A DNA stretch of 64,000 nt from Escherichia coli (GTDB lineage: Bacteria; Pseudomonadota; Gammaproteobacteria; Enterobacterales; Enterobacteriaceae), in the NCBI RefSeq assembly GCF_003018255.1, contig NZ_CP027440.1. One strand, 5' to 3'. The notes beneath the pieces were generated by a model. The model searched no databases. It was not told the origin of the DNA and saw only the letters and a list, made by a program, of their open reading frames with translations. Each line of letters opens with the position of its first letter. Within the stretch, counting starts at the first letter, position 1. Below are positions 4,617 to 58,908 of the stretch, in pieces. Both the position numbers and the translations under genes were made by a program.

Positions 4617-6566
4617 TCAGCAACGGCTTAAATCAGCCTGCGCCTGAGCCAGTTTTTCTGCCGCCTGACGTAGCGGTTCCATCAACGGCATGGTCCGTGC
4701 TGGAGCATGAAGGCGGAATCGCTGCAACTCTGTCGCACCGACATTCAGCGCCGATTCCAGCCGATGTCGTTTGGCGGCCATTTTTGCCATTACCGCTTGT
4801 CTGTCTGCAGGCGTTACCGCTTCGTTCGGCCTGAACACAAAACGGCGTTCACAGCTCGCTTTCCAGTCGATAACCGCCTGGGTCAGATGATCACCAAAAC
4901 CTTTCACTTGCTTAACGCTCCGTCGGGTAACATCCGCTGCTGTTTCAATACCAAAGGACCGTAACGCCGCTTTACGCGCAGGGCCAACGCCGGGAATAGA
5001 GGCAACATCAATAAAAAATCCCTCCAGAAACTTCTGCTTCTGCCGTTCCCTTGCGGTGTCCTGAAGTGCTGCCAGATCGCGCTTTTCTTCTTCCGGTAAC
5101 CCAAGAATTTCGTCCTTCATTTTTTCGAGCATCGTCCGTTTGGCGATAAAACCTTCCAGCCCGCCCAACTGCTGGATCTGGCTGACTAAATGGTCATAGT
5201 CCATTTTCGCGCGATTAAACGCCTCACGGCGTTGCTGGATTTCTGCTTTGTACGCTTTGCTTGTCAGGCTGCCAATAATCCAGATAGCCGCCAGCACAGG
5301 AACCAAAATAATATAACGTGGTTCTGTCTGAAGGCCGCAAAGCAGCAGCGATAACGCTGACAGTGCGATCTCAATCAGAATGATGTATTCACGCCTTAAC
5401 AGGCCTAAAGGAAGCGGCCTGCCAGTCGGTTGGAAATGATCGGGTAATGGTAATTGCAATGCTGGCGGTGCTACTGACGCCATCACCATCGCCCAGACTT
5501 TCGCCAGCACAAAATCACCGCTGGTGGTAATGACCTCTTCGCCGAGATCAATAAAATAGATAACGCCTTGATTATCCAGAGCACACCACGGGCAGTCAGC
5601 CAAATGACCGGGATAAACATGCATTGCCGAAACGGTACATTTCTTTAACTGTTGGCGTAGTAAATCAAGTGCCGCTACCCACGCTTTTGCCGTCGGACGC
5701 CCGGTTGCCACGCCACTTTCCGTGAATGCCTGCTGAAACATGGCTTCAACATCGCCCGGTAACATCGACAGCGGAATAGATCGTGGCGGCGGTTTTAAAC
5801 CACGTCGCTGATTATCTGACGCGTAGGCATAACGGAAATGGGCAATATCCGTCTCCAGTGCATTACCCGCATCAGAGACAAGCGGTACACCGGAATAAGG
5901 ATGCCGCCCACCAAACAAGACGTGAAAAATCAGCAACGCAAGGCCAAAATTATCGTGATTCGCGGTGCGTTCAAAGCCGACAAATGATGGCAAGGTTTGT
6001 TGCTCTGGCGGCGTAAAATGCGACACGCCGACTTCGCATAAATGCAGCGTGCCATTGGCGTTAATCTGAAAGGAGTCGCTATCAATCAACACCACTTTGC
6101 TGTCGCGACCTACCATAAAGCTGTTCTGGTTTACGTCACCCACGACGTGCCCGTGCTCGTGAATCGTAGCAAAAGATGAAGCAATATTGCGCGCAACATA
6201 GAGTAGAAAATCCCACGCACAATGAGGGTAACGTTGACGACGATGTGCCGGGCTATAGATCATATGAATCGGTTCTTTACCAGAAACTTTTGGCATCATA
6301 AAACCGATTACTTTTCCGCCTCGTCCACCGTGAAGCGTTGCCTGCGGCCAGGCGACATAATTCAACAACTGCGCGTCAGCTGTCGCAGCCATAAAGGCAA
6401 GTTTGTCCTGTTTTAAGGCGGGTGGCGGCGTGTGATAAATCTTGGCGACGCTATCGACAAACTCCTCGATATCATAAACCGCGCCTTCACCGCCTTTGCC
6501 CAGTTCACAGCCTGGCGTAACGCACTCACCAGTAGCAGTATATAAAGTGGGTTTCATGGTAACCAC
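4617..6566 (-). CDS. yegI: Membrane Ser/Thr protein kinase-like protein YegI with a C-terminal helix-hairpin-helix region
   Basis: 649-aa ORF. Kinase-like N-terminus: GKGGEGAVY loop, VAKIY lysine, HVVGDVNQNSF catalytic loop, IDSDSF. Two hydrophobic helices follow (YIILIEIALSALSLLLCGL and YIILVPVLAAIWIIGSL), then a charged coiled-coil-like stretch and tandem HhH motifs (IPGVGPARKAALRSFGI, VKGFGDHLTQAV). The track start is GTG 6566; an ATG at 6557 overlaps the yegK stop as ATGA. Confidence 0.88.
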   Translation of the reverse strand: MVTMKPTLYTATGECVTPGCELGKGGEGAVYDIEEFVDSVAKIYHTPPPALKQDKLAFMAATADAQLLNYVAWPQATLHGGRGGKVIGFMMPKVSGKEPIHMIYSPAHRRQRYPHCAWDFLLYVARNIASSFATIHEHGHVVGDVNQNSFMVGRDSKVVLIDSDSFQINANGTLHLCEVGVSHFTPPEQQTLPSFVGFERTANHDNFGLALLIFHVLFGGRHPYSGVPLVSDAGNALETDIAHFRYAYASDNQRRGLKPPPRSIPLSMLPGDVEAMFQQAFTESGVATGRPTAKAWVAALDLLRQQLKKCTVSAMHVYPGHLADCPWCALDNQGVIYFIDLGEEVITTSGDFVLAKVWAMVMASVAPPALQLPLPDHFQPTGRPLPLGLLRREYIILIEIALSALSLLLCGLQTEPRYIILVPVLAAIWIIGSLTSKAYKAEIQQRREAFNRAKMDYDHLVSQIQQLGGLEGFIAKRTMLEKMKDEILGLPEEEKRDLAALQDTARERQKQKFLEGFFIDVASIPGVGPARKAALRSFGIETAADVTRRSVKQVKGFGDHLTQAVIDWKASCERRFVFRPNEAVTPADRQAVMAKMAAKRHRLESALNVGATELQRFRLHAPARTMPLMEPLRQAAEKLAQAQADLSRC

Positions 6567-7315
6567 AGCGCCAGTGCCAACGTTTTATCATCATCGGTAC
6601 GCTCGTTTACCGCCGGGCCGGACAAAAACTGCTTTAACAATTCAGGTAATAAATCGAGTTGTTCCTGCGTTGCTGACGCCAGCCCATTGAAAAACGGGGT
6701 AAAGAAAGGCACATGCGGAGAATTATCCAGCATATTTAACGCCAGCCGCTGGATACCATCCGTAAATGCTGCAACTTTGTGCGCACGCTCAGTGCTGGTG
6801 AAAGTTTCCAGTCTGGAAACGGCATCTTCATCGGTAATGAAGTGCGTCATATTGGTATATTCACCCACCATCGGCGTGAGCGGCAGTTGCAAACCGTGCC
6901 CCAAATCTACCACCACGCCGCCATCGCCAATCTGCATAATCAAGGTGCCATTAGCTGATGAAATCAATCCCAAAAACGTGCAGGCAAAATCGCGAACCGC
7001 TAATTCTTTGGCTTCCGCCTCGGCAAAAAGTCGCTGACGAATGGTCAGCACAATGTCCGTTGCGAGAACATCATTAAGCCCCAATTCCCCGCCCTGCACT
7101 TTTTGCGACATATAAGCCATCGCTTCATTGACGGCGAGCATCGCACCTTCGCCTCCCTGCGAGGCGCTACCTGCGCCATCAGCGACAAATACCGACAATA
7201 ATGGCTGCTGGTCATTTAACCAGGCAACCTGCATCTGGCAGGCATCCTGGCAAGGCAAGTCCGCGCTGATGTGCGACGTTCCAACGGTTGATGCATAGAC
7301 CAGACGCCAGCTCAC
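6554..7315 (-). CDS. yegK: PP2C-like Ser/Thr phosphatase YegK (PphC)
   Basis: 253-aa ORF whose GTG start overlaps the yegL stop (GTGA). PP2C-type acidic metal-site motifs are present ([22 protein letters not shown]). It matches E. coli YegK. Confidence 0.88.
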
Positions 7316-7971
7316 ACTGACGTCCAGCCTTTTGGCGCTTCCAGCACAACTTCCGTTCCCGGCGTGGAGCGGGAAACCGAACGCAGCGAACTGGATAACC
7401 AGCTAAATAGTTCGCGGAATTGTAATCCTTGAAGAGGCAAAGGCTGACGAACGCTGATTTGGGCCAGCGTCTTCATATCCGCCCCCTGAACACCGATGGA
7501 AAAGAAGGCAAACTTCTTATCTTCTTCCCCCTGAAACACCTTGTTGGCAGCAGCCTGCCACTCATCGGTTGGTGCGCCATCGGTAATCAGGAAAATCCAC
7601 GGACGATAATAGGAAATACCATTGGCGCGATACTCACGTTTGCGCTCCTCAACCATATCCAGGGCTTTGGTAATGGCGGCCCCCATTGGTGTATCGCCCT
7701 GGGCAAACAGGATGGGCGGGAAAAAATTAGCGGCGCTGGTAAATGGTTGTTCCACATGCACCGGGCCGAACGTCACAATGCCGAGTTCCACTCTTTTTAA
7801 GGCCAGCGGATCGGCAAGCAGCTCATCGCGAAAGGTAACCAATCCGGCGTTAAGTTCATTAATAGGTCTACCGTTCATAGAACCAGAAACATCCAACAGC
7901 AAAATGCAGGGGCAACGTGGTTCCGGGTTACTGGCAAAATCGCTGGTGGCAAACGTGATTTGTTCGCTCAT
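7312..7971 (-). CDS. yegL: von Willebrand factor A (TerY-like) protein YegL
   Basis: 219-aa ORF with a complete MIDAS: [24 protein letters not shown]. It is the first gene of the yegL-yegK-yegI string. Confidence 0.9.
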
Positions 7972-8149
7972 AAGAAATCCTTTCTTAGAGAATTATTGAG
8001 GCCCGGTATCATACCGACTGCAACAATGAAATAAGAGCAAACGAAGAAACTTTCAGAATTAGGCCCGGCGGCGCAGAAAATTTTGCTATTCGCCTCGCAA
8101 GAACGGAGAGCCGTCGATTGACACTAAGGGCGGAGTGACATAATTTCAG

Positions 8150-8300
8150 GAGTGAGGGTTAGGGAGAGGTTTCCCCCTCCCCCTGGTGTTCTTAGTAAGC
8201 CTGGAAGCTAATCACTAAGAGTATCACCAGTATGATGACGTGCTTCATCATAACCCTTTCCTTATTAAAAGCCCTCTTCTCCGGGAGAGGGTTTCCCGTT
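8150..8300 (+). ncRNA. sibA: Sib antitoxin sRNA, copy 1 (SibA-like); ends approximate
   Basis: TTGACA (8118) and CATAAT (8139) promoter elements. The transcript is fully antisense to ibsA. Terminator hairpin GCCCTCTTCTCCGGGAGAGGGT is followed by TTCCCGTTT. Confidence 0.75.
8192..8251 (-). CDS. ibsA: Ibs type I toxin peptide, copy 1: MMKHVIILVILLVISFQAY
   Basis: My own translation of the minus strand gives 19 codons plus TAA, with an AAGGAAAGGG SD-like stretch upstream. The peptide matches IbsA as I recall it. Confidence 0.85.
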   Translation of the reverse strand: MMKHVIILVILLVISFQAY

Positions 8301-8485
8301 TCAGCGTCCCGCTGAAATCGTCGGCTTACCTCCTTTCGCCCTGAATGCAGTCTATCGCTAACGCGTGAACAAAATAGTTTCCTCTGTGATTATTGCGTAA
8401 CGACTCGCAAAGAATATTTGCTGGCAGGATCGCAGACTACAAAGCCTGCGGATTGACAATCTTATCGTGAAGGCATAATTTCAGG

Positions 8486-8629
8486 AGTGAGGGTAGAGCG
8501 GGGTTTCCCCCGCCCTGGTAGTCTTAGTAAGCTGGCCAGCTAATAACTAAGAGCACCACGATGATGAGTAGCTTCATCATGACCCTTTCCTTATTTAAGG
8601 CCCCTTCCTCGGGAGGGGCTTTCCCGTTT
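8486..8629 (+). ncRNA. sibB: Sib antitoxin sRNA, copy 2 (SibB-like); ends approximate
   Basis: TTGACA (8453) and CATAAT (8474). Antisense to the ibs ORF. Hairpin GGCCCCTTCCTCGGGAGGGGCT plus T-run. Confidence 0.75.
8524..8580 (-). CDS. ibsB: Ibs type I toxin peptide, copy 2: MMKLLIIVVLLVISWPAY
   Basis: Minus-strand translation gives 18 codons plus TAA, at the same position within the repeat unit as copy 1. Confidence 0.82.
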   Translation of the reverse strand: MMKLLIIVVLLVISWPAY

Positions 8630-8813
8630 CAGCGTCCCGCTGAAATCGGCGGCCTACCTCCTTTCGCCATGCAAGCAGTCTATCGCTAACTTGCAGATAA
8701 AATAGTTTCACATGTGATTATTGCGTAACGTCTCGCAAAGAATATTTGCTGGCAGGATCGCAGACTACAAAGCCTGCGGATTGACAATCTAATTGTGAAG
8801 GCATACTTTCAGG

Positions 8814-8957
8814 AGTGAGGGTAGAGCGGGGTTTCCCCCGCCCTGGTAGTCTTAGTAAGCCGGGAAGCTTATGACTAAGAGCACCACGATGATGATCCAC
8901 TTCATCATGACCCTTTCCTTATTTAAGGCCCCTTCCTCGGGAGGGGCTTTCCCGTTT
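8814..8957 (+). ncRNA. Sib-family antitoxin sRNA, copy 3; ends approximate
   Basis: TTGACA (8781) and CATACT (8802). Antisense to the third ibs ORF, with the same hairpin plus T-run as copy 2. Confidence 0.7.
8852..8908 (-). CDS. Ibs-family toxin peptide, copy 3: MMKWIIIVVLLVISFPAY
   Basis: Minus-strand translation gives 18 codons plus TAA, with the conserved MMK...(V/I)S(F/W/Y)PAY frame. Confidence 0.78.
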   Translation of the reverse strand: MMKWIIIVVLLVISFPAY

Positions 8958-9141
8958 CAGCGTCCCGCTGAAATCATCGGCTTACCTCCTTTCGCCCTGA
9001 ATGCAGTCTATCGCTGACTTGCGGATAAAATAGTTTCACATGTGATTATTGCGTGACGTCTCGCAAAGAATATTTGCTGGCAGGATCGCAGACTGCAAAG
9101 CCTGCGGATTGACAATCGGACCGTGAAGGCATACTTTCAGG

Positions 9142-9285
9142 AGTGAGGGTAGAGCGGGGTTTCCCCCGCCCTGGTAGTCTTAGTAAGCTGGGTAGCTAAC
9201 GACTAAGAGCACCACGATGATGAGTATCTTCATCATGACCCTTTCCTTATTTAAGGCCCCTTCCTCGGGAGGGGCTTGCCCGTTT
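9142..9285 (+). ncRNA. Sib-family antitoxin sRNA, copy 4; ends approximate
   Basis: TTGACA (9109) and CATACT (9130). Antisense to the fourth ibs ORF. Hairpin GGCCCCTTCCTCGGGAGGGGCT is followed by TGCCCGTTT. Confidence 0.7.
9180..9236 (-). CDS. Ibs-family toxin peptide, copy 4: MMKILIIVVLLVVSYPAY
   Basis: Minus-strand translation gives 18 codons plus TAA. Confidence 0.78.
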   Translation of the reverse strand: MMKILIIVVLLVVSYPAY

Positions 9286-9443
9286 CAGCGTCCCGCTGAA
9301 ATCGTCGGCCTACCTCCTTTTGCCCTGAATGCAGTCTATCGCTAACGCGTAGATAAAATAGTTTCCTGTGTTATTACTGGATGGGTGCTCGCAAATGTGC
9401 CCGCCATTCAGACGATTCCCGATAGTGTTTCATAATTCCTCCA

Positions 9444-9461
9444 TTTTTCTCCCTGATTGGC
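9444..9461 (+). promoter_or_regulatory. BaeR-binding box upstream of mdtA
   Basis: TTTTTCTCCCTGATTGGC lies about 55 nt upstream of the mdtA ATG. It is nearly identical to the remembered BaeR consensus TTTTTCTCCATDATTGGC. Confidence 0.65.
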
Positions 9462-9514
9462 TGGCTACACTAGTATCATTCCGCGAATCGTTTCAGGAAG
9501 AGAAACTCTTAACG

Positions 9515-10762
9515 ATGAAAAGCAGTTATAAATCCCGTTGGGTAATGGTAATCGTGGTGGTTATCGCCGCCATCGCCGCATTCTGGTTCTGGCAAGGCCG
9601 CAATGACTCCCGGAGTGCAGCGCCAGGGGCGACGAAACAAGCGCAGCAATCGCCAGCGGGTGGTCGCCGTGGTATGCGTTCCGGCCCATTAGCCCCGGTT
9701 CAGGCGGCGACCGCCGTAGAACAGGCAGTTCCGCGTTACCTCACCGGGCTTGGCACCATTACCGCCGCTAATACTGTTACGGTGCGCAGCCGCGTGGACG
9801 GTCAACTGATGGCGTTGCATTTCCAGGAAGGCCAGCAGGTCAAAGCAGGCGATTTACTGGCAGAAATTGACCCCAGCCAGTTCAAAGTTGCATTAGCACA
9901 AGCCCAGGGCCAACTGGCAAAAGATAAAGCCACGCTTGCCAACGCCCGCCGTGACCTGGCGCGTTATCAACAACTGGTAAAAACCAATCTCGTATCTCGT
10001 CAGGAGCTGGATGCCCAACAGGCGCTGGTCAGTGAAACCGAAGGCACCATTAAGGCTGATGAAGCAAGCGTCGCCAGCGCGCAGCTGCAACTCGACTGGA
10101 GCCGCATCACCGCACCAGTCGATGGTCGCGTTGGTCTCAAGCAGGTTGATGTTGGTAACCAAATCTCCAGTGGTGATACCACCGGGATTGTGGTGATCAC
10201 CCAGACGCATCCTATCGATTTGCTCTTTACCCTGCCGGAAAGCGATATCGCTACCGTAGTGCAGGCGCAAAAAGCCGGAAAACCGCTGGTTGTTGAAGCC
10301 TGGGATCGCACCAATTCAAAGAAATTAAGTGAAGGCACGCTGTTAAGTCTCGATAACCAAATCGATGCCACTACCGGTACGATTAAAGTGAAAGCACGCT
10401 TCAATAATCAGGATGATGCGCTGTTTCCCAATCAGTTTGTTAACGCGCGCATGTTAGTCGACACAGAGCAAAACGCTGTGGTGATCCCAACAGCCGCCCT
10501 GCAAATGGGCAATGAAGGCCATTTTGTCTGGGTGCTGAATAGCGAAAACAAGGTCAGCAAACATCTGGTGACGCCGGGCATTCAGGACAGTCAGAAAGTG
10601 GTGATCCGCGCAGGTATTTCTGCGGGCGACCGCGTAGTGACAGACGGCATTGATCGCCTGACCGAAGGGGCGAAAGTGGAAGTAGTGGAAGCCCAGAGCG
10701 CCACCACTCCGGAAGAGAAAGCCACCAGCCGCGAATACGCGAAAAAAGGAGCACGCTCCTGA
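9515..10762 (+). CDS. mdtA: RND efflux membrane-fusion protein MdtA
   Basis: Track ORF 9368..10762. I place the conserved start at ATG 9515 ([26 protein letters not shown]), giving the 415-aa E. coli MdtA. The stop overlaps the mdtB ATG. Confidence 0.93.
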
Positions 10763-22582: not shown

Positions 22583-22613
22583 AGCTGCATTTATTAAGGT
22601 TATCATCCGTTTC

Positions 22614-22700
22614 GCTGAAAAACATAACCCATAAAATGCTAGCTGTACCAGGAACCACCTCCTTAGCCTGTGTAATCTCCCTTACACGGGCTTATTTTTT
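22614..22700 (+). ncRNA. cyaR: CyaR (RyeE) Hfq-dependent sRNA
   Basis: GCTGAAAAACATAACCCATAAAATGCTAGCTGTACCAGGAACCACCTCCTTAGCCTGTGTAATCTCCCTTACACGGGCTTATTTTTT matches CyaR as I remember it. It includes the terminator hairpin and U-run. Confidence 0.92.
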
Positions 22701-38850: not shown

Positions 38851-38985
38851 AGTTTGCTCCTGCCATAACGTGAAGAAGCAATGACCTGGTGGTCCGTGAC
38901 TTCCCTACGCTGGCATTATCCAGATCAGGTGATACGGGTATTTCTCAGCCTTCACAAAGAAGGGCACCCCGAGTCGTTTGGTTGC
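38851..38985 (-). promoter_or_regulatory. TPP (THI-box) riboswitch of thiMD
   Basis: The minus strand reads ...GGGGTGCCCTTCTTTGTGAAGGCTGAGAAATACCCGTATCACCTGATCTGGATAATGCCAGCGTAGGGAAGTCACGGACCACCAGGTCATTGCTTCTTCACGTTATGGCAGGAGCAAACTATG. This is the classic thiM aptamer plus SD-sequestering expression platform. Confidence 0.93.
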
Positions 38986-58217: not shown

Positions 58218-58297
58218 GTTGAGATGCCATGTTGCACTATCAGTAACTTAACATCAAAGTAGTAAATAAAAGAACCTGCCTCACCAGCAGGTTCTTT
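58218..58297 (+). ncRNA. orzO: Orz-family antitoxin sRNA, copy 1 (ends approximate)
   Basis: TTGCAA (58183-58188), a 17-nt spacer and TATAAT (58206-58211). The 5' segment GTTGAGATGCCATGTTGCACT is complementary to the zor 5' UTR at 58052-58072. Terminator AGAACCTGCCTCACCAGCAGGTTCT plus TTTTATTTT. Confidence 0.72.
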
Positions 58298-58497
58298 TAT
58301 TTTCTGCGATCTACTTTCCAGATATTTTTCGCCAATAGCCCACCATAAATATTCACATCCCGGCCAAATAGTACGTTGATTATAAAATCGATGAATTTAT
58401 AAATAAAAATGAGTTATATGATGAATTAATAAAAACAGTAATCATTTTATTAAAGGGGGAAACGGTATTCCCCCTTAGATGCGTTTCAATTTGCCCG

Positions 58498-58825: not shown

Positions 58826-58908
58826 GTTGGTACGAAATGTTGCACAATCAGCAAGTTAGCGTCATTGTAGTAAATAAAAGAACCTGCCTCACCAGCAGGT
58901 TTTTTTAT
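58826..58908 (+). ncRNA. orzP: Orz-family antitoxin sRNA, copy 2 (ends approximate)
   Basis: TTGCAA (58791-58796), a 17-nt spacer and TATAAT (58814-58819). The 5' segment GTTGGTACGAAATGTTGCACA is complementary to the zor 5' UTR at 58660-58680. Terminator AGAACCTGCCTCACCAGCAGGTT plus TTTTTTATTT. Confidence 0.72.

Follow-up and report, generated by a model that had tools for sequence, protein, structure and literature searches.

The intergenic region between yegL and mdtA in the E. coli DNA analysed here (the window, 64,000 nucleotides in all) carries a tandem array of four Sib/Ibs type I toxin-antitoxin units. With a probability of about 90%, we read these as four intact modules that represent one state of a recombination-made polymorphism of one to five units, in which copies 2–4 are partly redundant and cross-repressing. 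We examined positions 8050–9365, which are flanked on the left by yegL (7312–7971, minus strand; ORF and RefSeq annotation of the identical record NZ_CP027452.1), the gene of a vWA-domain protein, and on the right by mdtA (9515–10762, plus strand; ORF and RefSeq annotation). In Tandem Repeats Finder the repeats come out as one array spanning 8139–9365 (period 328, 3.7 copies, 90% matches, score 1934). Alignment divides it into an A-type unit 1 (8072–8370), whose homology to the others starts at about column 37, and three B-type units of 328 bp (unit 2, 8371–8698; unit 3, 8699–9026; unit 4, 9027–9354), all taken on the plus strand; the right end of unit 4 matches the end of the K-12 B unit that lies nearest mdtA. 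In the four-unit alignment units 2–4 are 92.7–93.0% identical to one another with zero indels, and unit 1 is ∼76% identical to each of them.

This layout bears out a sequence-only reading made earlier, which had described four head-to-tail units of ∼330 bp (∼328 bp in our alignment), each with a plus-strand sRNA gene and a completely antisense ORF of 18–19 codons. The sRNA genes are recovered as four full-length plus-strand matches to the SIB_RNA family (RF00113) at 8118–8266, 8453–8595, 8781–8923 and 9109–9251, and all four exceed the gathering score of the covariance model by a wide margin (137–150 bits vs 56; E-values 4e-28 to 3e-31). When the annotated ends of K-12 SibA and SibB are transferred to the window, the RNAs are placed at 8154–8297 for Sib1 (SibA, 144 nt; Rfam 149.5 bits), 8489–8624 for Sib2 (141.0 bits), 8817–8952 for Sib3 (140.1 bits) and 9145–9280 for Sib4 (137.0 bits), the last three 136 nt long and all on the plus strand. 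Folding gives one architecture common to the four RNAs (–58 to –62 kcal/mol, z –4.4 to –4.9; for Sib1, –58.5 kcal/mol and –4.9), consisting of a P1 stem that closes the structure, a hairpin at the 5′ end, hairpins P5 and P6 (P6 being made of the complement of ATGATG, the ibs start), an unpaired anti-Shine-Dalgarno stretch and a GC-rich terminator hairpin.

All four units have a predicted sigma-70 promoter and a terminator hairpin that would give an RNA of ∼136–145 nt. The –35 hexamers, TTGACA in every case, start at 8118, 8453, 8781 and 9109, and a 17-bp spacer separates each from its –10 element, which is TAATTT for the predicted sib1 promoter (8118–8146, with the –35 at 8118–8123 and the –10 at 8141–8146) and sib2 promoter (8453–8481), and TACTTT for those of sib3 (8781–8809) and sib4 (9109–9137), all on the plus strand. 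The sib1 region is identical to that upstream of K-12 sibA, the sib2 promoter is likewise conserved with K-12, and TACTTT is the –10 element of K-12 sibB, whose RNA is known to be expressed; the inferred start of each Sib lies 7 nt downstream of the –10, as does the annotated K-12 5′ end. These –10 elements are weak, the U-tail comprises only 2–3 U, and a generic promoter and terminator scan picked up neither the promoters nor the terminators of the Sib genes. The assignment therefore rests on K-12, with whose annotated sibA and sibB ends the promoters and terminator hairpins align base for base. Of the hairpin plus U-run attributed to each unit beforehand, the hairpin stands and the U-run is short (UUU in copies 1–3, UU in copy 4); the K-12 Sib RNAs defined by experiment have an equally short tail. 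The sole oddity in the units is a T-to-G change at 9278, which turns the Sib4 tail from CUUUCC into CUUGCC, is absent from 13 other arrays inspected and might weaken Sib4 termination.

The antisense ORFs lie on the minus strand, each inside its RF00113 match, and encode four distinct peptides that had been predicted exactly, to the residue. These are ibs1, which is ibsA (8251–8192; MMKHVIILVILLVISFQAY; RefSeq WP_010723109.1, ‘toxin IbsA’), ibs2 (8580–8524; MMKLLIIVVLLVISWPAY; WP_100249772.1, ‘Ibs family toxin’), ibs3 (8908–8852; MMKWIIIVVLLVISFPAY; WP_012767741.1) and ibs4 (9236–9180; MMKILIIVVLLVVSYPAY; WP_100249771.1). Each ORF begins ATGATGAAG with the Shine-Dalgarno sequence AAGGAAAGGG upstream, so that every unit holds a hydrophobic 18–19-codon frame with its own ribosome-binding site, wholly inside and antisense to a Sib gene. 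The peptides all fit the pattern MMK...(S)(F/W/Y)(P/Q)AY; the hydrophobic core at residues 6–12 is IIVVLLV without variation in copies 2–4 and IILVILL for IbsA, and all four peptides share a C-terminal S-aromatic-(P/Q)-A-Y. Mutagenesis of IbsC, according to the summary in PMC8309996, shows residues 6–19 to be required. Judged by the conservation of core and C-terminus, Ibs1–4 would be expected to be toxic on overproduction, through membrane depolarisation. Upstream of the ibs genes, ∼130 nt of minus-strand sequence is conserved with K-12 ibsA and ibsB and includes a –10-like hexamer, TAGACT (putatively that of ibs1 at 8349–8354, minus strand), which recurs once per unit ∼100 nt upstream of the ibs ATG and is invariant across the four window units and K-12 ibsA/ibsB; we infer that it is a candidate ibs promoter. 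The sequence-only reading had named missing expression signals in the extra ibs genes as grounds for abandoning it, but the copies keep ATG, Shine-Dalgarno sequence and upstream region, and no disabling change is found in any of the four units.

The Rfam matches, antisense ORFs, common fold, K-12-like promoters and 3′ ends, conserved ibs upstream regions and RefSeq Ibs names thus agree in identifying all four units as Sib/Ibs modules. The pairing mechanism between Sib and ibs is established for K-12 SibC/ibsC. By analogy, the TTGACA/TA(A/C)TTT promoter of each unit would direct a structured Sib RNA of ∼136–144 nt, and the opposite strand would give an ibs mRNA translated into a hydrophobic membrane peptide of 18–19 residues. 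The Sib is complementary without a mismatch to both the coding region and the ribosome-binding site of ibs. Pairing would begin at exposed loops or single strands and lead to a translational block and mRNA decay, keeping the toxin off. From this perfect complementarity, Sib1–4 are predicted to repress their cognate ibs mRNAs.

That K-12 has two units at this locus, as the sequence-only reading stated, agrees with the MG1655 annotation of sibA/ibsA and sibB/ibsB (QUAD1a/1b; RyeC/RyeD), which have the same yegL–mdtA position and flanks as the window. K-12 sibA/ibsA corresponds to unit 1, with an identical peptide and a Sib RNA that is the same but for a single base in the terminator (G vs C). 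The B-type unit, of which K-12 has one and the window three, shares its promoter, fold, Shine-Dalgarno sequence and terminator with the B-type units here. However, K-12 ibsB has no exact DNA match among the three window copies, and IbsB (MMKLLIIVVLLVISFPAY) has F15 where copy 2 has W15, so that copy 2 is not IbsB. Instead the K-12 B unit is a mosaic that matches unit 2 at its left end and in the P6 patch, resembles unit 3 in the TRD1 patch and matches unit 4 at its right end. The B-type units therefore lack the one-to-one orthology needed to single out copies 3 and 4 as extras, and to call them extra paralogs, as had been done, is an oversimplification. In 14 other genomes the peptides are likewise combinatorial, with LL, WI, IL or RL at positions 4–5, I or V at position 13 and F, W or Y at position 15, and two identical tandem units occur in TUM13936 and in the five-copy CUVET19-1704. 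The mosaic informative sites and identical tandem duplicates point to unequal homologous recombination and gene conversion. Acting on ∼328-bp direct repeats, these processes would produce arrays of one to five units and would also exchange two short patches of variable sequence among the units.

The number of units at this locus was surveyed, as the sequence-only reading had proposed, by a sample drawn from 5,426 complete genomes. Coverage by a whole-array BLAST query was of no use for counting copies, with two-copy genomes reaching 96% through overlapping pieces, and we therefore adopted a query built from the unique left and right flanks, 1.5 kb of each, joined end to end, and measured the span between the two in 60 records spaced evenly down the ranking. 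Among the 57 records that were resolved, one genome has a single copy, 22 have two (at least 8 of them K-12 or laboratory derivatives), 26 have three (O157:H7 included), seven have four (O25b:H4-ST131 included) and one has five. The predicted number of ibs genes equals the annotated number in 14/14 loci fetched, and an independent spread sample obtained with the whole-array query contains four copies in 5/40. Four copies are thus present in roughly 12% of complete genomes (about one in eight), three are commonest and the range is 1–5. Describing the array as ‘expanded’ had taken K-12 as the norm, which these counts do not support.

The four-copy array is accordingly a common, already annotated copy-number variant of a well-studied family, and it is known. 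All 1,661 queried bases (7900–9560) are 100% identical by BLAST to E. coli 2014C-3338 (NZ_CP027452.1), on which PGAP annotates ibsA and three CDS named ‘type I toxin-antitoxin system Ibs family toxin’. Fozo et al. 2010 (PMC2887945) counted five ibs genes in K-12, six in O157:H7 EDL933 and seven each in Sakai, S. boydii, S. sonnei and E. fergusonii, and discussed lineage-specific ibs-sib duplications, so that strain-dependent ibs number has been in print since then. As a discovery the array carries little weight, given that publications already cover the family and how it works, its arrangement in tandem and its variation in copy number between strains, and that the array's genes have RefSeq protein accessions already found in hundreds of genomes; its modest value is corrective, in that the K-12 two-copy locus is not the species norm. 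Arrays of the same four-copy architecture are present in O25b:H4-ST131 isolate 32, strain 961 and strain C7, where PGAP annotates IbsA and three Ibs-family toxins and differences from the window are at the SNP level only. In strain 961 all four peptides are identical to those of the window; in ST131 and C7 the first three are the same and copy 4 differs only by I13 versus V13. The Sib4-tail T-to-G is found in none of these three and, among loci inspected, only in the window. The three-copy array of O157:H7 consists of IbsA, MMKWIIIVVLLVISFPAY (copy 3 of the window) and a variant with Y15 that is close to copy 4, and lacks the W15 unit (window copy 2).

A rival reading, that of the sequence-only reading, takes the four modules as mutually orthogonal pairs, diversified by selection until no Sib represses any ibs but its own. 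The alignment of the four units that it had called for locates their differences. Among units 2–4 there are 34 variable columns, distributed as 10/57 in the ibs ORF, 1/79 in the rest of Sib and 23/192 in the spacers, and alignment to SibC shows that the ORF changes cluster in two patches, one in the TRD1 region or P5 loop (ibs codons 12–17) and the other in the P6 loop (codons 4–5). In SibC the target recognition domain TRD1 is the P5 loop at +46 to +68 and TRD2 is the J1/7 anti-Shine-Dalgarno stretch at +99 to +115 (Han et al. 2010, PMC2943612). Over the 23 columns equivalent to TRD1 there are 4–5 mismatches per pair among Sib2–4 and 3–5 against Sib1, so that TRD1 differs between all four paralogues, much as SibC and SibD differ there by 4 nt, and a 3-nt change is enough to switch TRD1 specificity (PMC2943612); the P6 loops differ too. 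In the TRD1 patch roughly half of the substitutions leave the residue unchanged (those at codons 12, 16 and 17 and the ATA/ATT exchange at codon 13), which fits selection on the RNA rather than on the peptide. Acting alone, TRD1 with its 4–5 mismatches per pair would discriminate among Sib2–4.

TRD2, however, does not differ among Sib2–4. The equivalent region has zero mismatches, within identical runs of 50–53 nt (13–36 nt at TRD2 in the K-12 pairs compared), and only Sib1 is distinct, at three positions from each of the others. SibC and SibD share the RNA architecture of the window Sibs, including the P5 (TRD1) and P6 loops in which the variable patches lie, and differ in both TRDs, whereas of these domains Sib2–4 differ in TRD1 only. 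In SibC/SibD one TRD, either one, is enough for repression, and SibC carrying the TRD2 of SibD alone represses ibsD despite the differing P6 loops (Han et al. 2010, PMC2943612). With TRD2 identical and either TRD sufficient, these rules, derived from SibC/SibD and not from B-type Sibs, predict cross-repression and not the orthogonal pairs proposed earlier, and we infer by analogy that Sib2–4 should repress one another's targets as a partly redundant, cross-repressing set. The premise of strictly cognate repression by every Sib also has a published exception in ibsA, which is recognised by non-cognate Sibs (PMC2943612). Arrays with identical tandem units exist, so that distinctness between neighbours is not required, and the variability of the patches is no higher than that of the untranscribed spacers. 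Taken together, these observations make four orthogonal pairs rather unlikely. SibD and SibE, on the other hand, share a 36-nt identical run that touches TRD2, yet non-cognate K-12 pairs are treated as non-cross-reacting, bar ibsA (PMC2943612), and identical flanks are therefore no guarantee of cross-repression.

Selection for diversity also finds little support in the distribution of variable sites. Enrichment of the ORF over the rest of the unit is marginal in units 2–4 (10/57 vs 24/271, p = 0.058), as is that of the ORF over the rest of Sib in a population sample of 27 distinct B-type units from 14 genomes (11/57 vs 6/79, p = 0.064). Entropy in the 27 units is 0.19 for the ORF, ∼8-fold that of the rest of Sib (0.02), and 0.12–0.22 for the spacers. 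Within the ORF, codons 12, 16 and 17 vary synonymously only and codon 13 mostly so, and changes at codons 4, 5 and 15 alter the residue. Given the marginal p values and the spacer-like variability of the ORF, we stop short of claiming diversifying selection. What can safely be said is that conservation is strong in the Sib scaffold, anti-Shine-Dalgarno region and terminator and that two apical loops are free to vary.

The same conservation bears on whether some of the additional units are decaying, non-functional duplicates left by repeat expansion. The lineage-specific T-to-G in the Sib4 terminator tail could be read in this way, copy number is clearly dispensable, with genomes of one or two units being common, and relaxed selection on duplicated type I loci has been raised as one possibility (Fozo et al. 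2010, PMC2887945). Against this, all four units retain –35, –10, Rfam structure, ATG, Shine-Dalgarno sequence, open frame and ibs upstream region, and the non-ORF part of Sib in units 2–4 has the single variable site in 79 nt given above. At ≤1 mismatch, Sib2 is found in 627 E. coli records, Sib3 in 1097 (O157:H7 among them) and Sib4 in 223, which fits purifying selection instead, and we regard decay as improbable. That the four-copy state is an assembly artefact is hardly credible: short reads can mis-assemble tandem 328-bp repeats, but these units differ at ∼7% of positions and are hence individually distinguishable, the architecture recurs in independent complete genomes including ST131, strain 961, C7 and 582, and the record of 2014C-3338 matches without a difference across the locus.

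Within the reading that we prefer, of four intact modules with a cross-repressing B-type set, a more elaborate organisation is conceivable, and we offer it tentatively. The B-type units may be recombining cassettes in which the Sib scaffold and the anti-Shine-Dalgarno/TRD2 region are homogenised by unequal crossing-over and gene conversion and the P5/TRD1 and P6 patches are re-assorted, so that strains would carry varied combinations of partly specific antitoxins. The resulting network would be layered, in that any B-type Sib could back up any B-type ibs via TRD2 and TRD1 would confer a kinetic advantage on the cognate pair. We found no earlier description in the literature of such a layered cassette system for Sib/Ibs. 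With TRD2 in common and differences confined to two loops, the B-type variants that occur in nature are a convenient panel for gauging discrimination by TRD1 on its own.

Finally, tandem duplication of whole modules of toxin and antisense RNA within one intergenic region is likewise seen for ldrA-C/rdlA-C and for zorO-orzO/zorP-orzP. Their toxin and RNA families are unrelated to Ibs/Sib, and their antitoxins pair with the 5′ UTR, whereas Sib pairs with the whole ORF. An Rfam scan also places a zor-orz pair elsewhere within the 64,000-nucleotide window.

Two of the yegL-mdtA loci fetched from other E. coli genomes carry adjoining units that encode the same Ibs peptide, namely WP_001386899.1, present twice at positions 1974-2358 of the TUM13936 locus, and WP_100792650.1, present twice at positions 1975-2359 of the CUVET19-1704 locus. 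The CUVET19-1704 array comprises five units, and its adjoining pair matches at 34/34 informative sites. Such identical neighbours in these two strains point to unequal crossing-over that happened very recently.

In some strains, phages appear to use the 3′ end of a Sib gene for attachment. E. coli L725 (NZ_CP036202.1) carries a prophage with integrase, excisionase, RecT and lysis genes immediately upstream of mdtA (∼4733-5900 of its locus), and the host DNA on the mdtA side restarts with CCTTATTTAAGGCCCC..., which lies within the last sib unit, in its 3′ portion (anti-Shine-Dalgarno/terminator). The putative attachment site is proposed from this mdtA-side junction. Besides L725, H99 is another sampled record with split flanks.

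In the window itself, the short U-tail past the terminator hairpin of Sib4, the unit nearest mdtA, contains a T-to-G change at position 9278 and thus reads CUUGCC rather than CUUUCC. All 13 further arrays that were inspected lack this change, among them that of strain 961, whose peptides are identical, and it might weaken termination and allow same-strand read-through towards mdtA. The sole sigma-70-like consensus match that the promoter scan returned in the region (TTCAGA, 18-bp spacer, CATAAT; 9407-9436, plus strand) falls between the array and mdtA and is probably the mdtA promoter region.

The RefSeq annotation of E. coli 2014C-3338 (NZ_CP027452.1), in the part corresponding to window positions 8118-9280, lists four ibs coding sequences and zero sib ncRNA genes, whereas the curated K-12 record contains both ibs and sib genes. 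Annotation outside K-12 thus leaves out the antitoxin genes systematically.

Another type I system duplicated in tandem shares the window with the Sib/Ibs array. An Rfam scan identified two plus-strand OrzO-P antitoxin RNAs at 58225-58298 (90 bits) and 58833-58906 (89 bits), spaced ∼600 bp apart, and this pair is the tandem zorO-orzO/zorP-orzP toxin-antitoxin locus, known from O157:H7 and missing from K-12 (PMC3919570). Further Rfam matches are the CyaR/RyeE sRNA (22612-22697, plus strand, 100.7 bits) and a TPP riboswitch (38885-38981, minus strand, 71.2 bits), both of which are ordinary for E. coli.
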